Part shown: positions 8,126-49,413 of the stretch, piece after piece
How positions within the stretch are numbered: position 1 is the stretch's first letter
Layout: each line of letters begins with the position of its first letter
Source of the DNA: Paecilomyces variotii
Lineage: Eukaryota
Assembly (NCBI GenBank): GCA_004022145.1
Contig: RCNU01000004.1
Reading direction: 5' to 3' (one strand)
DNA length: 64,000 nucleotides
Notes under the pieces: model-generated
The model's database searches: none
Told to the model about the DNA's origin: nothing
What the model saw: only the letters and a program-made list of their open reading frames with translations
Translations under genes and position numbers: made by a program

Positions 8126-8828
8126 TTATCGGTAGCGCTGATTGTAGTCATGGTTCCTCTTCGTTCCTGGCTCGTAATGCCACTCGGCGGCGATGGTCTC
8201 CGCGGGCTCAGGCTGCTTGTCCTCTGCAGCCAGGGCGCCCTTGTTACCGTGCTGACCACCACGAGCTTCTTCTCTCTCAATACCACGCTGGTCCGGCCGA
8301 GCACCCTCGTCGGGCATCTTGGGTCTCGAGGCTCCAACGCCTTCCAAGCCCTGTCCGACATGCTTCCGGTGGTGCTGGCCATCATGGCGGATCTCAGTGT
8401 TAGTCTCGCCTACACCAGGGTGACCCAGACCCCGGTGGACATCCTTTGACGTCGCACCGGGCATCGAGTTAGCCGCCGTGTAGGTAGACTCCTTTCCGTG
8501 GCCCCGGAGTGTGTCCTCGTTGTTTGCCTGGCCGGGAGTCTCGTTGATGGGGTTAGGCTGGTAGGAGCTGCTGGCAGGAGCAGTGCCAGGGGGGAGGACC
8601 TGTGCGTGGAATTCAGGGGCGTAGTCTGCTGGGGAGGCCTTCACTCCAAGCTGGTGCTGTATAGAGAGACATTCTCGTTAGCATTGCATTATACCCAGAA
8701 GGAAAGATTAACTATAGGGATACGAAACGTACACCCTTGGTCTCAGGTCCAGGAACCGAGGGTTTAACACCGGGCTTGAACTCGCCCTGCTTGTTGTTGA
8801 GAGATTCGATGTTGCGGAACTCGCTCAT
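8126..8828 (-). CDS. Hydrophilic Gly/His-rich hypothetical protein (possibly stress/spore associated), 2 exons
   Basis: ATG at 8828; exon 1 8733-8828 (MSEFRNIESLNNKQGEFKPGVKPSVPGPETKG). Intron GTACGT...GCTAAC...ACAG joins in frame to the 8126-8656 ORF. Function is not recognised. Confidence 0.75.
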
Positions 8829-34633: not shown

Positions 34634-36266
34634 TTATGTCGCTTTCTTTCGAGCTATCCAGCGAGAAGGTCTGTACAGGTTCTGCAGCATACTGCGCGGG
34701 TCTTGGATGTAGCCACATTCACGCTGCCCTTCCCTCAGAGCACGCTCCTCCACGTGGAATCCCATCCGCTCCACAAGTAGCATGACTTCTTCGTCGGTCA
34801 GCTCGACACTTCCAGGCTCTCCAATCCCGTCATTCTGATGAGTATTCGCGCCAGTCTCCTCATTACTCTTGCCACCTCGGGTGCTGCTGCTCTCAAAGTG
34901 CCATAACAGAGGGCCTACGTTGATCCAGATTCCACCGGGCTTGAGACAGTTTCGGATGACTTCGATATACCGGATCAGATTTGGCGCAGTATCGATGAAG
35001 AACACAGTGGCAACCGCATCGAAAGCGTCCTTTTGTGACTCGCCTCGGTATAGAACCACAAAGTCCGCGGCAGACATGCTCATCGTCCCGAAATTTCCTT
35101 CTGCGTTACCCTCTGCTTGCTCCTGCTGAGCTGCAAGCATCGCAGACATGGGATGTACGTCTGGTATCATGACCTTTCGTAACTGTTGCGTCCTTGACTC
35201 TAGGTTGGAGAATTGTGTGGCAAAAGGATAGAGGACATGCTCTCCGGGCCCACGGGAGTGATTGAGTACCCAGCTGCTGGCTATCAGCTGGTGGTACGAG
35301 ATCTCATTACCTTCCGCTGCAAATCCAGCCTGGCAGAGATCGAAAACGAGCCTACCCAGTCCAGCCCCAGGAACCAACACTTTCACTTCTGACCGGGACC
35401 CCTTCCTTTGCCCGAATTCCTTATCTAAAGCTTTGATAACGGGGTCGTAACAGACCTCTCGCTCGGCCTTGCCTTCTGCACTCCAGTCCCTGTAGAACTG
35501 TCTAATAGTCGAGTGAGCCTTGCTCACATCGGACGATGTAGCCGTTCCCTGCCAATTGCGGGTCGGATCATCCTCTTCGGGGTTCGCTGATAGTCCGAAC
35601 GACTCCAGGCCAGTCTTGAGTATGGCGTCAGCAAGTTCCGCATTCGCATCAATGGCATCATCCACTTTGTTGAAGTTATCCAGAAGATTGAAAGGCGCTT
35701 CCGCTAGCATCTGCCAGTGCGAGGATGGGAGTGCGTAGAACGCCTGTCGTCGGCGGTGAGTGGTGTTCATGTGAGCTGTCCTTCGGTATTGCCTATTCAT
35801 TGCTTAGTGGATGTAAAGAATGCAAAATGAAATTATGGATCTCTGAGTGATTTGATCTCATAATGGAAGTTTGTAACCCCATGACCACATTAACAAGACC
35901 AACAAGGCAAAAGGGTATGAAGAGCATCAATTCTGAGCACACAATATAACGAACGCATATTCATTGGGAGACAAGAAATACATTAAACGACAAGCTTCGA
36001 TATTAAGGTCAATAAAGATTAACAAGCAATAAAGCAGAATATATCAAGGTCACGGTATCAAACACAGGATAGACAGATTCTGGTCTACCCCCTCTGGGTA
36101 CATAGGCCCATACACATCTGGAAACATAAATAAAAGATACGTACCTGAAAGAGTCAAGAGTAGAAAAGAGCACTCGACGCTCCTCCGGATCAGCAAAGGG
36201 ATCAAAGTCCCCTGCCCAACTCTGGACTTCTTCTGGCTCATCGTGATGATGGGCGTGCGGGTCCAT
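34634..36266 (-). CDS. Carnosine N-methyltransferase-like (N2227/CARNMT1 family) SAM-dependent histidine methyltransferase, 2 exons
   Basis: STIRQFYRDWSAEG, VLVPGAGLGRL, EGNEISYHQL, TVFFIDTAPN and GIWINVGPLLWH. Intron 35793-36144 joins LDSFR|QYRR. Confidence 0.88.
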
Positions 36267-36817: not shown

Positions 36818-37684
36818 ATGACAACCATATCCACCCCACCGATAGAAATGCCACACGCAGAACCTACATCTCCTTCTACGACTCCAATCGAGATCTCATT
36901 TCCACTTCCAAAGACACCTCATACGACAGCCCATGTTCACCTGACTTTCCTGGCTACCTCAACCATGGTCTTTCTGGCCACGACGACGCCGGGAGATTCG
37001 GCGGGGACGATGAAGCCGCTGGGGAGTTTTGTGTATGCGATGCCGGATGTAGGTTTATTTTTTCTGATCTTGATTTCCTGTCTATCTTTATTTTCCTATG
37101 GTCCTACTCCTGTATCGTTGTTCAAGTGTTTATTCTTGATTTCCCTCTATTTTGGATTGATTTTGCGCTTCCCGGTTTATTCGCTTTTATGGCTTTGCAT
37201 ATTATTTCCTGATCTGGAAGAGCACTCGTTCTCTTCTAATAATATTCTGGGCCCGCATCGAACCCGTTTCAACTCTCCCCATGCAGTCACGCCCTGCCCT
37301 TCTATCGCGTTCCCGCTACTTATATAGCCTACCAATGTATCTTGCTCTACATCAACTCACCCCTTTGCGAGCCCAGTGCATTCATGCATGCATGACAAAA
37401 TATTGAGTGAACATATACTAACAAATATCCAGCGCACAAACACCCGCCCCGCACTCTCCACGGCGCTCTACACATCTCCCGCTAGCATCGACTACGCGAC
37501 GCGAACGGCAAAGATCCTCGCGCGTCGCATGCGTCGTCCCGTCTATGTCGGATGTAGCATCGACACGGTGGCGGCCGGTTCAACGGCCGAGGAGGAAATG
37601 GAAGGGCTAGCGAAGATCGTGGACGAGATTATGAAGAAGTGGGATGAGAAACAGAGGGCAGATGGTGTTGTTAATGGCGTGTGA
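36818..37684 (+). CDS. Probable 20S proteasome assembly chaperone (PAC4-like), 2 exons
   Basis: LGSFVYAMPD|RT...STALY...DYATRTAKILARRMRRPVYVGCS pattern. Intron 37049-37432 (GTAGGT...ACTAAC...CAG). Confidence 0.65.
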
Positions 37685-37936
37685 ATCTGGGACAGGTTCT
37701 TAGCAAAAAAGAAGATGAGGACGAAGACACTACTTTGCGAGGACAGTTTGCTGTGCTCCTAAGTTGTTGATGACTTGATGAGCGTATTCTGTTTAACCCT
37801 TGGATTGACCGCAGTTTTAATAACTTAGGATTCTCCTCTGATTGTGTAATCCACCAGTTGATGCGGCTTCGTGAAGCCGTTCTTCAGATATAATCAAACA
37901 TGCCTGTCTACCGCTATCTAGATCCCCTGTACAGGA

Positions 37937-37964
37937 ATATATATATATATATATATATATATAT
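37937..37964. repeat. (AT)14 microsatellite
   Basis: Uninterrupted AT dinucleotide run flanked by GA...TC, making a perfect palindrome. Confidence 0.9.
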
Positions 37965-38362
37965 TCTTGTTACCTACGGGGCAAGATATATGTTGGCCTC
38001 AAACGAGCAGGGTTGATGAGAAGAATTTGCAATCATCTGCTCGGGGTAATGACCATTCTATTTCAAAATGTGTCACCAGGTCGGTGGGCCTTTATCTAAT
38101 CATGGACGTCTGTTTTAGTTAATGTGCGTCGCCAACAGACCTAAAACTGTACGTTTTGATCTTTCGTATTGGAAAATTGCAAAAGAATGGCTTGATATTA
38201 TCGGAGAATCCAAAAAACATAGGAATTCGATTTGAACCCTCAAAGTGAGGGAAATGCCTAGCCTCTGAGATATACAAGTACATGTAGTGAAATGACGAAC
38301 TCTTTTATAATAGCACAAACGTGGTATAAAATGTCAAAAAGGGAGATTTTATGTATCACATC

Positions 38363-38488
38363 GCCCGGATGGTCTAGTGGTATGTTACAAATGGCACCCT
38401 CGCAGCCAATCATCATTGCTAATTCAAATTCAGGTATGATTCTCCGTTTGGGTCGGAGAGGTCCCGCGTTCAAATCGCGGTTCGGGCC
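38363..38488 (+). tRNA. tRNA-Pro(UGG) copy 1, interrupted in the D-loop by a 54-nt spliceosomal-type intron (exons 38363-38379 and 38434-38488)
   Basis: Joined exons read GCCCGGA TG GTCT AGTG|GTA TGAT T CTCCG TT TGG GT CGGAG AGGTC CCGCG TTCAAAT CGCGG TTCGGGC C (72 nt): 7-bp acceptor stem, 5-bp anticodon stem around TGG, 5-bp T stem, A and B boxes, downstream T run. Confidence 0.92.
38380..38433 (+). other. Spliceosomal-type intron inside tRNA-Pro copy 1
   Basis: Donor GTATGT (38380), branch GCTAAT (38418-38423), acceptor CAG (38431-38433). Confidence 0.82.
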
Positions 38489-38499
38489 TTACCTTATTC

Positions 38500-38506
38500 T
38501 TTTTTT
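38500..38506 (+). terminator. Pol III oligo(dT) terminator of tRNA copy 1
   Basis: T7 run starting 12 nt after the discriminator base. Confidence 0.75.
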
Positions 38507-38576
38507 CCTTTTTTTCTTATTGAGCTGTCATTATATTTTCTTAGAGCATCTCCGAAGAGAGTTCTATTACAGCATC

Positions 38577-38711
38577 GCCCGGATGGTCTAGTGGTAAGTT
38601 ACCAAATATCTATATGTCACACTAGTCTTTGTCTGTCTCTAACATTCTCTCCTCAGGTATGATTCTCCGTTTGGGTCGGAGAGGTCCCGCGTTCGAATTG
38701 CGGTTCGGGCC
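38577..38711 (+). tRNA. tRNA-Pro(UGG) copy 2, interrupted in the D-loop by a 63-nt spliceosomal-type intron (exons 38577-38593 and 38657-38711)
   Basis: Exons identical to copy 1 except G57 and T61 (GTTCGAATT). Same insertion point between G18 and G19. Downstream T run. Confidence 0.88.
38594..38656 (+). other. Spliceosomal-type intron inside tRNA-Pro copy 2
   Basis: Donor GTAAGT (38594), branch TCTAAC (38638-38643), pyrimidine tract and acceptor TTCTCTCCTCAG (ends 38656). Confidence 0.82.
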
Positions 38712-38723
38712 TATGCTTCATTC

Positions 38724-38732
38724 TTTTTTTTT
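38724..38732 (+). terminator. Pol III oligo(dT) terminator of tRNA copy 2
   Basis: T9 run starting 13 nt after the discriminator base. Confidence 0.75.
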
Positions 38733-39322
38733 CTTCTCTTTTAATTTGATTCCTCACCTTGACTTTCCAAGTTATTTATTACCATGTCAAGGTGGATTCA
38801 ATTGATTCATTAATTGAACCATCGGGCAGGCGTGATGTCGTCCTGTGTGGTGGGACATGAGTCTCGACAAATGAGTCGATAGGAATCCTTTTTTCTTTGG
38901 ACTGAAGATCTTCATGACACCAAGTGAAGATGAGAGAACTAACTACTAAGGTGGTAGCTACTGTTTGGCGTATCGAGAGATGGTATCGAGTAATATCTCA
39001 TTCTCATTGTTGTTTTACTCTTTGTATAGGAAAGCAGTAACTCTTTAAATACTCATCACTACTTGGGACTCTCGTACCATTTTCATAATTGAAGTATCGC
39101 CATAAGCAAAGAGAGGGAGAAGGCTAACGAGCCCATGCTACGGAGAAAATTGAAGTATTTTTTTTACCAGTACTCTTTTATATTATCAGAATCCGCCATA
39201 GAGGGTGAGGCCCTCATCATGAAAGCGACATTGGAAGAAGGAAAAGAAAGAAGCAGATTTCACATCAATAGTAATACAAAGAGTATTAAACCTTCCATGT
39301 ATGATATCCATCCATTCGTCCA

Positions 39323-42300
39323 TCAAGCCTTCGCACTGACTTCAACGCCTGCCTTAGTTTCATTCATGGAACCCTGTCCAGACCCGTTGGTTGTAGGAGC
39401 AGACGGTGGTCCCTCAGCCCACATGGGAGCGATGGTTTCTACCGCTCTCTCAATCACAACCCTCACTCTATCTCTCAATACGGCGTAGGAGCATTCGACA
39501 TTTAGATCCTCCAGCCAGACACGAGCGACGTGCTTATCGACCTTGATCTCGATTCCGGGGAAGGGGATTCCGAGAGCATTTAGGCGAGCGAGCTCTGCTG
39601 CCTCGGCCTCAGCGACATCTTCAGCATCTTCTTCCTCTTCTTCCTCCTGTTCTTCCGCATTGGAGGCTGGAGTTTCAGTGCCGGGTTCGGTCTTAATGGC
39701 GCTAGGTGTCGACACGCCATCCTGGCTCTTTGCAGCGGACAGGTCTTTAGGGAGACGAGGACGTTCGATTGGGACAATGTCTGATCCGAACTGTGCTTCT
39801 AGCATCATCAAGAGGCGCCCAAAACGCTCTTCTGGGCCAAGATTCGAGTGTGGGTTCGGGGGAAGTGGAACATCATGGCTATGGTGGTTGTGCTTGCTGG
39901 ACTCTGTGATCCGGAATGCCAGTTAGTCCTATCATGCGACAGTAGTTGGGAAGACAGTAGATCTGAAACATACGCTTTACGGAAGCAGGGCTGCTTTCGA
40001 CTGTCAGAAGCACGGCCATAACTGCATCAGCTACCCCGTCGTTCATCATGTTACCCTCCCACTCCAGCTCGACCTCACGAGTGCGGGCCATATATCTGAC
40101 AACCACGCAGCCCATCACAAGATATGCGTGGTCCTCTTCGTGAGGGATTTCCTCGTCAGCAGCCTCAACTTTCTCCAAGTGACCGTTTTTGCCGTTGATT
40201 GAATCGTCTCCGTTTTCCTTTTTAGCCAGCTCCTGGTGGCTGACACCGATCTCTTCTATCGCACCAAATGTGCCCTCAAGGGCCCATTTTATCAAATCCA
40301 TGCTTGCTGAGCTAAGCGTGATGTGTTGCTTGCAGGTAATGGTCGTTGTTGTCAGGCCCGCATACTCGCGGAGGTCATCAGGCGCCATCAGCGACAGGTT
40401 GAATCCGTTCTGAACCAAGACCCCCGCCATCAGACGGCCATCATCTTGTTCTGATGGGGGAGTGATCTCCGCCAACTTGCCGACAACTTTGGCGACCTTG
40501 TCTTTTCGGAAAGGTATGCGTACTTCTTCACAGTTGGCAGGCGTGTAGATCTTAACCTTCACTGTCTTCTCGGAATTAAGACTGAGGAGTTTGGATTTAA
40601 GACGCATCATTTGGTGCTTCTCGCCATGTACCAGGATCTGGGATAGGATGTCAGTTCAAATTGCCCACGCATAGTAAAGGACAATATACATACTACAACA
40701 GGAGCAGCGACTTCTTCGATAAAATTCCGATTCTCCACGCCATCAACGTGTGCCGCGAAACTGATCTCATCAATGGTACATCTTCTCGGGATCATGACCT
40801 TCTGCTCCTGATCACCAGCAGTCGGGACTCGACCTCGGACAGGCAAGGCTGCCGTCCTGGACATGACTGCAGGGATCTGCTCCGGTTCATTGAGAAGTTG
40901 CTTAGCCATAGTTCCTTCAACGCTATAACCCGTCATAACAACCCCATTTCGTTCGCTAGGCGCCCATCTTTCCAAGAGCTCCCTACTTGTTCCGGTTTGG
41001 AGCATACCAGGAGAAGCTAGCATAACGCAACTACCGACGTCATCAAAACGCTCCAGACTTCTTAGACTGCGAACAAATTTGAAGTCCCAAGGCCCCGCGC
41101 TGACGCTCTTGTCGCCTCTGGCCTCCGCTTCTGCCATCCGCTGACGGAAAAGACGCTTGATGTTGTCGTTCATGGCACCAATGTAGGTCTGATAGACAAC
41201 CATACAGCGACGTGCTGTGTTTCCAATATAGTAGATAGGGATCTTCTGGAGCTCTGGGTGCTTCTCCCAGTATTCATCCAAGATCAAAAGTAGTTCCTGT
41301 GCACGACCCAAAGCAAACACAGGCATGAGAACCCTGCCTCCTCGGTTCAAAACACCAGTGACTGTCTTCATAAGAGCTGCTTCACGCTCTAGTCGAGGAG
41401 GGTTCGATGAGATACCGAATGTCGATTCCGTAATGAGAACATCGATCTTAACGCCTCTGGGAACCTCTGCAGGTATCAGATGGCGGTCCTCTTCTCGAGA
41501 GTAGTCGCCAGTGAAAAGTATGTTGAGCCCAGCAATGGATACCAAAAACATAGCAGCACCGAGGACATGGCCAGCGGGGAAAGGAGTTACGCGGATACTG
41601 TTTATTGTGTGGGTCGTGTTGAAGTCAATTGTCTCGATTAGGGGCAGGGTCGACAGGTGATCGTGTTCTGTGTATAGTGTCGTCCGTTGGTCTGATGATG
41701 AAGATGTATTGCTGACTCGGACGTTGTCTTGGATAAGCCATTTGTAGATTGCTTTGGTTGCATGCGTCATGAAGACACGGCCTTTGAAGTTTGTCTTGCT
41801 CAAGACATAGGGGAGGGCAGAGGAGTGGTCGACGTGGAAACTGTAGTGATACAATACTCATACATTAGCTATTTCTGCAAGCGAATAGAATTGAAAGTCG
41901 CGACACATGAATGGATCAAGAGGTTGCGAGATGCTCGCAACCATACGAGAGGCTTTGACAGTAGGGCGTACGGGAGGACAAATATCCGATAATGTCAGAC
42001 TGAAGATATTGTATTGTTTCTCTGATATACATGCAGTCAAGTATAAAGGGTGTGTGGTATGATCCTCTTCCAGCGGTGCTGCTCGAGTATGGGCTTTTAT
42101 CCGCTCCGTATACAGCACACCAGGTAGACACTCCAGTGATATTATATCTGCGTGACAACAAGCTCGAATGAAAGAAAGAGATCGGACGTACTGGCTGATA
42201 AGGAGTATGTCAACTGTGCTGAGATCGAACTCGTCGAAGAATGGAAGAGAGGCAAAGCCTTCTTTTGCAGGGTGCATGCCAGCATCAAGCTATCGGTCGT

Positions 42301-47121: not shown

Positions 47122-49413
47122 ATGTCGACTCCGTCGACAGCCACTGCGACACATCCTTCGCATCATCAACATTATGGGTATCCGCATCACCAAGCATCAT
47201 ACCAGGCCAACGGTTCATACCCTTCAGCTACGACAACAACAGGGACTTCTCGCCTAGCCAACCCGTACACATATCCCGCCAACACGCCAACTACAACCCT
47301 TCCCTATCCTCAATCGAAGCCTCCAGTACCCTCCACGACGGGGACCATGTCCTCTTATCCAAATAACAACGCTCCGACCACTGTTCGGGTCCCCCGGAGG
47401 AAGAAGCCCGACTGGGGCGAGTTCTATAAGAACGGGTTGCCAAAGGAGGTGATCGTCATCGATGACACTCCTACTCCTGAGCCGCATGAGGAAGACCCCT
47501 ATCCGCCGGCCGGCCCTTCTACAGCCACGGCCACGGGTGGGATGACCGTTCAGCCCGCAGGTAAGAAAAGACGGACTGGTGTCGAGACCGCGTATGATCT
47601 GGGGTACTACGATCGCCCGTCGTTCTCGATCAACCCCCAGCACTACGGAGAGGATTCATCTGGAACATCCATCTCCACTGATCGAACCACCTCTCTGCAC
47701 ACTACGGCACCCACATCGCTTGGATCTCATGGCAGTTCAGGCGCGAGCAACGGTGTGGTTTATGAAGATGCGAATGTGGGCCAGAAGCGAAAGCGGGTGA
47801 CCACACGAAAGTCTGCTCGCGACGAGCAAAAGCGCCGGGAACTCGAGACGGCTGGAGATGCGTTCCTCAACTACATACCTCCAAAGAAGCCACCTATCAA
47901 AGCGAAGGACGTGCCAGTTCCGGTAGTCCGCGACGTAAGTGACCAGATTAATCATCGCGAGGACTCACGACCGATCATGCTAATGCGCCTGTACAGTACA
48001 CCTATTCAAAGCACCAAAAAGTTGATGATGACGATGGTCACTACATTGTGACGCCGGATACGGATTTGACGGATAGATGTAAGCTACCCCGTAATTCAGT
48101 GGGCATCGAAATACTGCATGCCATGGGGAAAGAGCTAACAGCATCTTTTACAGATTCGATTATCAGGCTGCTCGGCCAGGGAACATTTGGCAAAGTGGTC
48201 GAGGCCTACGATAAGCAAAAGAAGACTCGATGCGCAGTCAAGATTATCCGCTCGGTACAGAAATACCGAGACGCATCCAGGATCGAGCTTCGAGTTTTGT
48301 CGACATTGTCTTCGAATGACAAGACCAACCGTAACAAATGTATTCACTTGCGAGACTGCTTCGATTTCCGAAACCATATCTGCATCGTCACGGATCTCTT
48401 GGGACAGAGTGTCTTTGATTTCTTGAAAGGCAACGGTTTCGTCCCATTCCCTAGCAGTCAGATCCAGAACTTCGCTCGACAACTATTTACCAGCGTGGCT
48501 TGTAAGTTGCAATGACAGCCAGAATCGTTTCCGGTGGCTCCAGACTGACAAATATGCAGTTCTTCATGACCTGAACCTGATCCACACAGACTTGAAACCG
48601 GAGAACATTCTGCTTGTGAACAACGCGTACCAGACATTCACGTATAACAGAACCATCCCCTCGTCCTCTCACACCACTTCAAGGAACGCCCGACAAAGAC
48701 GTGTACTGCTGGACAGTGAGATCCGCCTCATCGATTTCGGATCCGCGACCTTTGACGATGAATACCATTCCTCAGTCGTCTCCACCAGGCATTACCGTGC
48801 GCCTGAGATCATACTGAATCTGGGATGGAGCTTTCCTTGTGATATCTGGAGTATCGGTTGTATTCTCGTGGAGTTCTTCACTGGGGATGCTCTCTTCCAG
48901 ACCCATGATAATCTCGAGCATCTTGCTATGATGGAGGCCGTCTGCGGAGGCAAGATCGATACTAAACTTGTCAAGCAAGTCCAGCAGGGCGGACGAGGCA
49001 ACAGCCAGAATCAAGCGGCCAAGTAAGTTGCGCATGATTTCCGTTCGCTTTTCGCGTCGATACTGACATTTCCAGATATTTCAACCGCAATAAGCTTGAC
49101 TATCCGAACGAGGAGACGACGAGGCAATCACGGAAGTATGTGAAGGCCATGAAACAGCTTTCGGTAAGTTGCCTGTCGTTCACGATTGGCTTGTTCAATT
49201 ACTAACGTCATCTAGGAATTCATTCCATCGAATACGCCTTTTAACAGACAATTCCTCGACCTCCTCCAGCGGATTTTTGTATATGACCCCAAGAACCGCA
49301 TCACTGCCAAGCAGGCTCTCAAGCATCCGTGGTTCAAAGAAACTATCATCGATGATGGCACGGAGGCGTTGCGCATTGGTCAACAACTGCAACGCAACGC
49401 CCAGCGAGGTTAG
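47122..49413 (+). CDS. lkh1: LAMMER dual-specificity kinase (Lkh1/Kns1/CLK family), multi-exon
   Basis: [40 protein letters not shown] and the signature EHLAMME. Last exon ends ...QRNAQRG* at 49413. Confidence 0.94.

Follow-up and report, generated by a model that had tools for sequence, protein, structure and literature searches.

Two tRNA-Pro(UGG) genes lie in tandem in the window (the whole 64-kb stretch of DNA analysed here), at positions 38363-38488 and 38577-38711, and each carries an insert within the conserved GG of the D-loop (Table 1). The original prediction had placed inserts of 54 and 63 nt between G18 and G19, and these coordinates were confirmed in the sequence. By inspection of the sequence, both window copies are free of an insert at position 37/38. 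The copies share 70 of 72 exon letters, while most of the intron and of the flanks is different; the donor, branch motif and acceptor are retained. In copy 2, the T at 38699 produces a G53-U61 wobble pair, and other strains have a C at this position (T>C, runs X12 and X13).

Table 1. Positions of the features of the two interrupted tRNA-Pro(UGG) genes and their surroundings
Feature	Position	Strand	Remarks
Copy 1 exon 1	38363..38379	+	acceptor 5' strand, D-stem 5' strand, D-loop to G18
Copy 1 D-loop intron, 54 nt	38380..38433	+	longest T run <4
Copy 1 donor GTATGT	38380-38385	+	from sequence
Copy 1 branch motif GCTAAT	38418-38423	+	branch A 38422, 11 nt before intron end
Copy 1 acceptor CAG	38431-38433	+	from sequence
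Copy 1 exon 2	38434..38488	+	rest of D-arm, anticodon arm (TGG), variable loop, T-arm with B-box, acceptor 3' strand, discriminator C
Copy 2 exon 1	38577..38593	+	same sequence as copy 1 exon 1
Copy 2 D-loop intron, 63 nt	38594..38656	+	longest T run <4
Copy 2 donor GTAAGT	38594-38599	+	from sequence
Copy 2 branch motif TCTAAC	38638-38643	+	branch A 38642, 14 nt before intron end
Copy 2 acceptor CAG	38654-38656	+	from sequence
Copy 2 exon 2	38657..38711	+	two T-arm differences from copy 1
TATAAAA, putative upstream promoter element	38325..38331	+	mature copy 1 starts 38 nt downstream
Copy 1 trailer T7-CC-T7, Pol III terminator-like	38500..38515	+	from sequence
Copy 2 trailer T9, Pol III terminator-like	38724..38732	+	from sequence

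The position of the cut is ambiguous, with seven adjacent positions in copy 1 and five in copy 2 yielding an identical product, because the first letters of the insert repeat the start of exon 2. At just one of these product-equivalent positions, in each copy, does the insert read as GT-AG. The A box likewise remains whole in the DNA because the intron opens with the same letters as exon 2, and in copy 1 the A-box-like sequence runs uninterrupted from exon 1 into the first two letters of the intron. Together with the B-box of exon 2 and the T-run trailers, this A-box-like sequence makes up the predicted hallmarks of a Pol III type 2 gene. TATA-like elements occur upstream of both copies, and from the TATAAAA before copy 1 it is ~31 nt to the position (38356) where cover by an RNA-library contig starts. 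A separate B-box-like sequence with a T6 run lies on the minus strand at ~38205-38245, where no tRNA fold was found by eye.

When the exons are joined in silico, ARAGORN identifies a 72-nt tRNA-Pro(tgg) for both copies, which bears out the cloverleaf that had been predicted to result from excision. The spliced product has standard pairs at 20 of its 21 stem positions, and the sole non-pair, U13-U22, is common to all 12 of the relatives that could be resolved. The expectation that standard tRNA finders would miss or mis-call these genes also held, as tRNA-Pro was called by ARAGORN after splicing alone. On the raw 64-kb window the default ARAGORN search returned 0 genes, and with the intron option the loci were mis-called as tRNA-SeC(tca) and tRNA-Glu(ctc). 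Rfam had 0 matches at the gathering score over the 64 kb, and tRNA matches were absent from 37500-39500 even up to E=10. Should the introns be spliceosomal, tRNA-Pro genes would be under-counted by standard finders in many mould genomes, including those of industrial and food-fermentation species.

The resemblance of the inserts to the mRNA introns of the window, a further element of the original prediction, extends to both length and motifs. Candidate introns that link open reading frames in the window are 49-73 nt long, with predicted GTATGT or GTAAGT donors and CTAAC, CTGAC or CTAAT branch motifs; examples in the CPSF73 gene are found at 39904-39973 and 40638-40693, and the Pfam match continues across the former. 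The properties of a U2-type intron that can be read from sequence (a donor like the fungal GTRNGY, a CTRAY branch motif, the acceptor, a length like that of mRNA introns, and an unconserved, unstructured interior) all appear in the inserts.

Metagenome contigs were scanned with a pattern that fixes exon letters alone and does not impose splice signals, and this recovered 16 tRNA-Pro loci with a D-loop insert (given L numbers below). Applied to prokaryote genomes (596 billion bases) and to viral contigs, the same exon pattern had 0 matches in each. Thirteen distinct inserts from the scan and the two from the window form a set of 15, in which a GT-AG reading is possible for 14 (shuffle mean 0.11, maximum 3 in 2000 shuffles) and GT-AG plus YTRAY at 8-20 nt from the end for 11 (shuffle mean 0.016, maximum 1 in 2000 shuffles). 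The GT donor, branch motif and CAG acceptor proposed for both window inserts are thus present and, across the set, occur beyond chance. Among the three GT-AG inserts without YTRAY, ACTAAAC is found in two and a branch motif is absent from L014. The acceptors of the 12 GT-AG inserts from outside the window are CAG, TAG or AAG, and insert lengths are 45-63 nt. T runs within the 14 GT-AG inserts gave no clear signal of depletion: runs of T4 or longer occur in two of 14 introns against 3.6 expected, and T5 or longer in two against 1.1. Two Penicillium tRNA-Pro(CGG) introns (L009 and L012) contain T6, which should terminate Pol III.

While the splice signals are kept, the interiors of the inserts have diverged, and this holds for the Penicillium loci, for that of a Dothideomycete and for those of unplaced eukaryotes. 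For seven Eurotiales-like genes, exon 1 identity is 94-100% against an intron identity of 53-66%, approximately the background level. The window introns are unstructured (copy 1, MFE -4.2 kcal/mol, z +0.24; copy 2, MFE -0.8 kcal/mol, z +1.41), as are all 14 GT-AG inserts (z -1.57 to +1.80). The sole insert without a GT-AG reading, that of L016, forms a stable hairpin (-19.5 kcal/mol, z -2.59). A bulge-helix-bulge, defined as a 4-bp central helix with flanking bulges, was found in 0 of 15 inserts over all product-preserving cuts, a weak test because 0 of 5 canonical introns, run as controls, were recognised by it. An origin of the inserts by tandem duplication of the tRNA was considered and rejected, as the interiors are unlike their own exons (smallest shuffle fraction 0.066 among 15 inserts). 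The retention of splice signals across lineages requires selection for splicing, and the comparison supports a reading in which the inserts would behave like U2-type spliceosomal introns under selection.

The relatives identified by name are Penicillium for L015/L012 and Dothideomycetes for L001, and protein comparison left L004, whose nearest clusters were Chlorophyta and Oomycota, and L011 without a firm taxon. All 12 of the resolved genes give a 72-nt tRNA-Pro with many compensatory pair changes, and the D-loop inserts occur in all three tRNA-Pro isoacceptors. For L003, L007, L009, L010 and L012/L015, removal of the D-loop insert leads ARAGORN to report a tRNA-Pro with an ordinary 37/38 intron, so that these genes have an endonuclease-type intron at the standard site in addition to the GT-AG intron. 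In L002, L011 and L005, the T-arm and acceptor are restored only by a second deletion, for which the sole family of product-preserving cuts includes a GT-AG reading with a branch motif. These second deletions were assigned with a strict pairing test, as brute-force deletion with ARAGORN was too permissive (116 'solutions' for L002); under the strict test a clean tRNA was not obtained for L001, L008 and L014.

The tRNA-Pro(AGG) genes of L003 and L007, which originate from two samples, have an insert at the same +1 position and introns that have diverged. On the Penicillium contig of L007, four of five tRNA-Pro(AGG) paralogues have identical exons and no D-loop intron, and interrupted copies can therefore be redundant. 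The L010 gene is flanked by degenerate partial copies. A T run is retained just past the 3' end of nearly every gene.

Contigs from three RNA runs (X12, X13 and X17) and one DNA run were searched for the spliced exon joint, which was not seen among them; the lack of a joint in contigs is no proof that it does not exist, and the capture of mature tRNA is poor. RNA run X17 gave a 292-nt unspliced contig (record 19) that spans both introns and the spacer, passing through the T7-CC-T7 trailer into copy 2, and this one contig of one library may reflect read-through or DNA in the library. Coverage by X17 is limited to 38356-38672, with the flanks at 38200-38353 and 38684-38850 uncovered and a snap-back contig (record 18) at 38356. 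The edge of this cover might mark the 5' end of an RNA, 7 nt before copy 1 begins, a hint drawn from a single study and from missing cover. In DNA run X1, a 42-nt piece common to both copies begins inside the end of the intron and has ~2x the depth of its neighbours, and the intron-free junction is absent from the X1 pieces, which are contigs. The pieces are consistent with two copies alone, both interrupted, where depth is not to be taken as a copy number. The library contigs (record 4) also contain another tRNA-Pro-like locus in the organism.

Based on the sequence evidence, both tRNA-Pro(UGG) genes of the window are likely to be functional nuclear genes of a Eurotiales mould in which a true U2-type spliceosomal intron interrupts the GG of the D-loop. 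A protein encoded in their neighbourhood is 100% identical to a protein assigned to Paecilomyces variotii. The mRNA-type signals in both inserts and the similarly split genes of other moulds suggest that the mRNA splicing machinery is probably needed, and that these tRNAs probably mature by way of it. Of the original proposal that the pre-tRNAs are spliced by the spliceosome, the part that stands is carried by the splice signals, the divergence of the interiors, the lack of structure and the coexistence with 37/38 introns; on the other side, the RNA-library contigs are unspliced only and provide no joint. For the further proposal that CCA-codon decoding is thereby linked to mRNA splicing, a dependence on these two loci is hypothetical, with another tRNA-Pro-like locus in the organism and intron-free tRNA-Pro(AGG) paralogues in Penicillium.

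Transcription of such genes by Pol III would start from the internal A and B boxes, possibly with a TATA-like element upstream, and would end at the T runs. In the pre-tRNA, the intron would block the elbow formed by the D-loop and T-loop. U1 would base-pair to the donor (GUAUGU or GUAAGU), U2 and the branch-point factor would assemble on GCUAAU or UCUAAC, and the CAG 11 or 14 nt downstream of the branch would serve as the acceptor. Two transesterifications would release the lariat and join G18 to G19, and the restored cloverleaf would then be end-processed, CCA-tailed and modified in the usual way. In relatives with a 37/38 intron, the tRNA endonuclease and ligase would take out the second intron, so that both splicing systems would act on one pre-tRNA.

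The inserts could instead be non-canonical tRNA introns, cut at a bulge-helix-bulge by the tRNA splicing endonuclease and closed by a ligase, with the GT-AG ends and branch motifs incidental. Introns of the D- and T-loop that are removed without the spliceosome are described for Cyanidioschyzon, Chondrus crispus and nucleomorphs (available portions of PMC4090602 and of the PlantRNA 2.0 preprint), the structured, non-GT-AG insert of L016 fits this type, and the ambiguous cut position would permit it. This explanation is nonetheless very unlikely, given that GT-AG occurs in 14 of 15 inserts against 0.11 expected and GT-AG plus a branch motif in 11 of 15 against 0.016, and that the GT-AG inserts are without structure. 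The fungal endonuclease, moreover, measures from an intact mature domain that includes the D-arm (PMC4090602, in the portion available), and it is this domain that the intron disrupts; the bulge-helix-bulge result (0 of 15, control 0 of 5) points the same way as a weak test. Self-splicing introns of group I or II are known in bacterial and organellar tRNA genes, and inserts of this kind, or otherwise structured RNA elements, might be imagined here. With lengths of 45-63 nt, far too short for such elements, no Rfam match in the window, no stable fold among the GT-AG inserts and an unconserved interior, we give this explanation almost no weight.

It is also conceivable, though improbable, that the interrupted copies are dispensable or dead and make no mature tRNA, with proline decoding supplied by intron-free genes elsewhere. 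The intron-free paralogues adjoining the interrupted gene of L007, the degenerate copies around the L010 gene, the damaged appearance or lack of a clean tRNA in L001, L008 and L014, the T6 within two introns, the G-U at 53-61 of copy 2, the solely unspliced RNA-library contigs and the other tRNA-Pro-like locus of the organism would all accord with dead copies. Decay of this kind is difficult to align with exons that remain intact and identical while introns and flanks diverge, and with splice signals kept across lineages, which requires selection for splicing. The shared +1 position in the tRNA-Pro(AGG) genes of L003 and L007 with their diverged introns, the occurrence of such introns in all three isoacceptors, the strain variant at 38699 that preserves the pair as G-U or G-C, and the maintained T-run trailers likewise argue for working genes. 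No more probable than dead copies is a scenario in which the introns are spliceosomal and the precursor is a longer, possibly dicistronic Pol II transcript, from which the tRNAs are freed by RNase P and RNase Z. The X17 contig that continues past the copy 1 trailer (T7-CC-T7) into copy 2, the T6 in the L009 and L012 introns that would halt Pol III, and the TATA-like elements upstream of both copies could be explained in this manner. Upstream TATA elements, however, serve Pol III too in some fungi, the bridging contig is a single contig of a single library for which read-through or library DNA is possible, the A and B boxes are intact, and a T run follows close behind the 3' end of nearly every gene. 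Spliceosomal removal of the inserts from Pol III transcripts of functional genes remains the favoured reading.

No report of spliceosomal introns in tRNA genes was found in the literature searched. As far as the available portions of the cited sources extend, the nearest known system is U6 snRNA, whose genes in fungi carry mRNA-type introns (Tani and Ohshima 1989; Canzler et al. 2016; via PMC5855946), with the U6 intron of S. pombe as an earlier example of a Pol III transcript processed by the spliceosome (PMC5855946). Both cases have a Pol III-type structural RNA gene with short introns that show a canonical donor, branch and acceptor and are otherwise unconserved. Insertion occurs at several sites, one gene may hold up to several introns, their occurrence in related fungi is patchy, and some paralogues carry introns while others are intron-free. 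In contrast to U6, the host here is a tRNA and not a component of the spliceosome, so that the active-site reverse-splicing argument made for U6 is not directly applicable, and the pre-tRNA may also require the tRNA endonuclease pathway. Spliceosomal introns occur as well in ascomycete rRNA genes (Bhattacharya et al. 2000, via PMC5855946), a comparable case in that a structural RNA gene not transcribed by Pol II carries introns of spliceosomal type in the same fungal subphylum; it differs in being a Pol I transcript and in its host RNA. In the portion of PMC5855946 available, tRNA is absent from the hosts listed.

Red algae and nucleomorphs, including Cyanidioschyzon, Chondrus crispus (20/21 and 58/59) and the Guillardia nucleomorph, have nuclear tRNA genes whose D- or T-loop is interrupted (available portions of PMC4090602 and of the PlantRNA 2.0 preprint). 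Like the genes described here, these sometimes have an additional 37/38 intron and are missed by tRNAscan-type tools; unlike them, they rely on a bulge-helix-bulge-like structure and the tRNA endonuclease, and the portions available do not describe them as GT-AG introns with a branch site. The inserts here are by comparison unstructured and have spliceosomal signals, and that of L016 may be of the older type. Canonical eukaryotic tRNA introns are located at 37/38 and removed by SEN/TSEN and a ligase (PMC10275265; PMC12530127, each in part). As with the D-loop inserts, their removal is required for a working tRNA, and the same genes carry them in relatives; the differences reside in the D-loop position, the GT, branch and AG signals and the presumed machinery. 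In the available portions of these tRNA reviews, nuclear tRNA introns are treated as endonuclease/ligase substrates (PMC10275265; PMC12530127), and spliceosomal and tRNA introns are presented as unrelated types, with the spliceosomal ones in Pol II transcripts (PMC12530127).

If spliceosomal maturation of these tRNAs is correct, the separation between tRNA and spliceosomal intron classes would be broken, and the spliceosome would acquire a second Pol III substrate after U6. A transcript of ~130 nt would offer a compact natural system for studying the spliceosome on short, structured, uncapped RNAs. In genes with both introns, one small Pol III transcript would have to pass through two unrelated machineries in succession, and it would become possible to study which splicing pathway acts first on a single molecule.

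With somewhat less assurance than for the two window genes, we lean towards a broader interpretation in which some cytoplasmic tRNA-Pro genes, across a large part of the filamentous ascomycetes, are true spliceosome substrates. Their introns, added to the group I, group II and endonuclease types, would bring the kinds of tRNA intron to four; they would be situated in the D-loop or T-arm and sometimes share a pre-tRNA with a 37/38 intron. Both genomic copies in the organism of the window would depend on the spliceosome under this interpretation, which would tie proline decoding to spliceosome activity. The three adjacent sites and the paralogues with and without an intron would further provide insight into intron gain. 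All three insertion sites fall no more than one nucleotide away from a D-loop GGUAUGA that resembles a donor, a clustering that would suggest that the introns arrived by reverse splicing into a mimic of a splice site.

Copies 1 and 2, the two neighbouring tRNA-Pro(UGG) genes of the window, lie in tandem on the plus strand with 88 nt between them. The original prediction held that they carry inserts of 54 and 63 nt between G18 and G19 of the D-loop, and its coordinates, donors, branch sites and CAG acceptors proved correct (see table). When the exons are joined in silico, each copy produces a 72-nt cloverleaf that ARAGORN calls as tRNA-Pro(tgg), with standard pairing at 20 of its 21 stem pairs and U13-U22 as the sole exception, and position 37/38 is free of an insert in both, again as predicted. 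The proposed cut at GT and AG stands as the sole GT-AG reading in each copy, but it is not the only cut available, because the first letters of each insert repeat the start of exon 2 and several adjacent positions (seven in copy 1, five in copy 2) therefore yield the same product. This repeat also leaves an A-box-like sequence unbroken across the border of exon 1 and insert in the DNA. The two copies have 70 of 72 exon letters in common and differ in their intron interiors and flanks, and a TATA-like element lies upstream of each (TATAAAA at 38325-38331 ahead of copy 1). Just upstream of copy 1, the minus strand at 38205-38245 holds a B-box-like GGTTCAAATC followed by T6, which could not be folded into a tRNA and may be a relic.

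Features of the tRNA-Pro pair and of the neighbouring genes in the window
Feature	Position	Strand	Details
Carnosine N-methyltransferase ORF	34634-35803	minus	protein comparison
Copy 1 exon 1	38363-38379	plus	read from sequence
Copy 1 D-loop insert	38380-38433	plus	54 nt; starts GTATGT, ends CAG
Copy 1 branch motif GCTAAT	A at 38422	plus	11 nt from insert end
Copy 1 exon 2	38434-38488	plus	read from sequence
T7-CC-T7 trailer after copy 1	38500-38515	plus
Copy 2 exon 1	38577-38593	plus	read from sequence
Copy 2 D-loop insert	38594-38656	plus	63 nt; starts GTAAGT, ends CAG
Copy 2 branch motif TCTAAC	A at 38642	plus	14 nt from insert end
Copy 2 exon 2	38657-38711	plus	read from sequence
T9 trailer after copy 2	38724-38732	plus
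CPSF73/Ysh1-type gene, 3' end	about 39323	minus	Pfam
Candidate mRNA intron, CPSF73 gene	39904-39973		70 nt; predicted
Candidate mRNA intron, CPSF73 gene	40638-40693		56 nt; predicted
Candidate mRNA intron outside CPSF73 gene	47935-47996		predicted
Candidate mRNA intron outside CPSF73 gene	48502-48559		predicted

Genes split in this way escape standard annotation, as had been anticipated. ARAGORN reported no tRNA gene in the raw window and, with its intron option, mis-called the two loci as tRNA-SeC and tRNA-Glu; a search against Rfam gave nothing at the gathering score, and even with E values of up to 10 no tRNA was matched. The claimed likeness to the mRNA introns of the window was borne out among candidates predicted by linking ORF pieces, whose donors, branch motifs and sizes match those of the D-loop inserts.

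A pattern of ten fixed letters, drawn from exon 1 and from the beginning of exon 2 with 40-70 free letters between them, imposes no GT, AG or branch motif. It matched 16 loci (L001-L016) in JGI metagenome contigs, and had no match in prokaryote genomes totalling 596 billion bases or in viral contigs. L013 was rejected as a false positive in which the pattern spanned two adjacent tRNA genes; this contig holds 24 tRNA genes within 2.6 kb (L013:29-2552). With L013 dropped and the repeated inserts of L005 (as L001) and L015 (as L012) counted once, the scan contributed 13 distinct inserts and the window two. Considering product-preserving cuts only, a GT-AG reading exists in 14 of these 15, against a mean of 0.11 and a maximum of 3 in 2000 shuffles of the inserts, and GT-AG combined with YTRAY 8-20 nt before the end occurs in 11 (shuffle mean 0.016, maximum 1). 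ACTAAAC is present in two of the three GT-AG inserts that lack YTRAY, while that of L014 lacks a clear branch motif. The GT-AG introns are 45-63 nt long and fall at three adjacent sites, between U16 and G18 (L001/L005, L002, L004 and L011), G18 and G19 (both window copies, L006, L008, L009, L010 and L012/L015) or G19 and U20 (L003, L007 and L014). Identity across seven Eurotiales-like genes is 94-100% in exon 1 but 53-66% in intron alignments, the latter about the level of unrelated sequences under the scoring used. The anatomy of these genes and selection on their splice signals are matters of observation, and D-loop GT-AG introns in tRNA-Pro are widespread in moulds. Protein comparison placed L015/L012 in Penicillium (best named match 78%) and L001 in the Dothideomycetes (84% to a Meristemomyces protein) and gave no firm taxon for L004 and L011; L007, L009 and L012 share a metagenome source.

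Removal of the D-loop insert alone allowed ARAGORN to call tRNA-Pro in nine of the 16 loci, the false positive L013 included, and no tRNA in the remaining seven. The calls comprise AGG (L004, L016, and L003 and L007 with 37/38 introns of 16 and 18 nt), CGG (L009 with a 30-nt and L012 and L015 with a 29-nt 37/38 intron) and UGG (L010, 14-nt 37/38 intron), and therefore all three proline isoacceptors can carry the D-loop intron, which occurs together with an ordinary endonuclease-type intron at 37/38 of the same gene. When a perfect T-arm and acceptor stem were demanded, L002, L011 and L005 required one further deletion, in each case a single family of product-preserving cuts (2, 2 and 3 cuts, respectively) that includes one with GT-AG and a branch motif. 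These second introns lie in the T-stem 3' strand (46 nt in L002, 45 nt in L011) or at the T-loop/stem border (53 nt in L005), such that L005 and L011 have three introns per tRNA gene, one at 37/38 and two of spliceosomal type. In L006 a T-arm intron of GT-AG type appears to begin before the contig ends, and the strict pairing test gave no clean tRNA for L001, L008 and L014. All 12 resolved genes, with L005 counted using a 14-nt 37/38 intron, form a 72-nt tRNA-Pro in which U13-U22 is the sole non-pair in 11 (L016 has two), and many compensatory pair types occur across their acceptor, anticodon and T stems.

A Pol III pre-tRNA from which the U2-type spliceosome removes the D-loop intron is the most likely account, and one we consider probable. 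Excision would restore the GG required for the tRNA elbow, normal end-processing would come after it, and in relatives with a 37/38 intron endonuclease splicing would also follow. In this account, we infer the excision, the lariat and the polymerase. The splicing proposed in the original prediction gains comparative sequence support, but no spliced joint occurs among the contigs of the DNA-type run X1 and three RNA libraries, which can show presence and not absence. RNA-library contigs cover the locus in unspliced form; one of 292 nt from X17 spans both introns and what lies between them (exon 2 of copy 1, the T-run spacer and exon 1 of copy 2), and indicates at most that precursor-length sequence is present, as RNA libraries can contain DNA. 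Against transcription by Pol III, T6 directly follows the donor in Penicillium-like tRNA-Pro(CGG) D-loop introns (L009:240-294 and L012:3543-3600) and should terminate this polymerase. Removal by the tRNA endonuclease has a precedent in the non-canonical D- and T-loop tRNA introns described in red algae and nucleomorphs (PMC4090602). None of the 14 GT-AG inserts folds stably (z -1.57 to +1.80), and a strict bulge-helix-bulge is found in none of the 15 inserts, though also in none of five canonical-intron controls, and so discriminates little. The 47-nt insert without a GT-AG reading (L016:9198-9244) folds stably into a hairpin (-19.5 kcal/mol, z -2.59) and may be an endonuclease-type D-loop intron of the red-algal kind from an unplaced eukaryote.

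A review of U6 names the snRNA genes for U6, U2, U5 and U1, along with rRNA genes, as hosts of spliceosomal introns and does not include tRNA (PMC5855946), and the tRNA introns covered in three further sources are treated as endonuclease substrates unrelated to spliceosomal introns (PMC10275265, PMC7954030, PMC12530127). Fungal U6 introns, up to four per gene (PMC5855946), resemble the tRNA-Pro inserts in combining canonical signals with unconserved sequence. The kind of event is known and the host, a tRNA, is new: in line with the original prediction, which knew of no established case, searches of openly accessible full text found no description of tRNA genes with spliceosomal introns, though an earlier one may exist in subscription journals or closed supplements. 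A donor-like GGUAUGA in the D-loop is no more than one nucleotide away from each of the three insertion sites, and one may speculate that introns entered by reverse splicing at this splice-site mimic; a test of whether they arose by tandem duplication came out negative.

The interrupted form is not fixed among recent paralogues. On a Penicillium-like contig (L007:1819-9067), five tRNA-Pro(AGG) genes lie within 12 kb; their exons are identical and their 37/38 introns, of 17-18 nt, nearly so, but the D-loop GT-AG intron is confined to the copy at 8214-8360, and is therefore gained or lost among recent paralogues. Interrupted copies can therefore be redundant, given the four paralogues without the intron. 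In L003, which comes from a different sample, a diverged intron occupies this site in the same isoacceptor, so the interrupted form persists. At L010 (reverse strand), the intact interrupted gene is flanked by degenerate partial tRNA-Pro copies, which lie at about 400-450 and 690-850 when the locus is oriented. Each starts with the 3' end of the intron and the start of exon 2, which shows local duplication at the DNA level.

Runs containing the window locus come from one organism and from food-fermentation metagenomes. Position 38699 is T in the window and X1 and C in the RNA libraries X12 and X13, a change that replaces the G53-U61 wobble in copy 2 by G-C and so keeps the pair. Another tRNA-Pro-like locus of the same organism (X1 record 4) matches the final 32 nt of the tRNA (38457-38488) with 2 differences; ahead of this stretch is intron-like sequence that ends near the anticodon-stem 3' strand, and a T8 trailer follows the tRNA. 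A tRNA-Pro(CGG)-like gene whose 37/38 intron measures 14 nt is present in X12 (record 11).

In the window (GC 49.8%), the tRNA-Pro pair sits between convergent protein genes. In the CPSF73 gene, the match to a Pfam C-terminal domain runs on across the candidate intron at 39904-39973. A palindromic (AT)n microsatellite at 37916-37991 resembles several miRNA models, but the matches are weak, fall below threshold and are probably meaningless. Over 99% of its length, the carnosine N-methyltransferase ORF matches an NCBI Paecilomyces variotii protein at 100% identity, and its next named relatives are from other Eurotiales (72-74%). Alignment to the named Paecilomyces protein puts the first intron of this gene at 35795-36143 (minus strand) with a length of about 349 nt, far longer than the other candidate introns of the window (49-73 nt).
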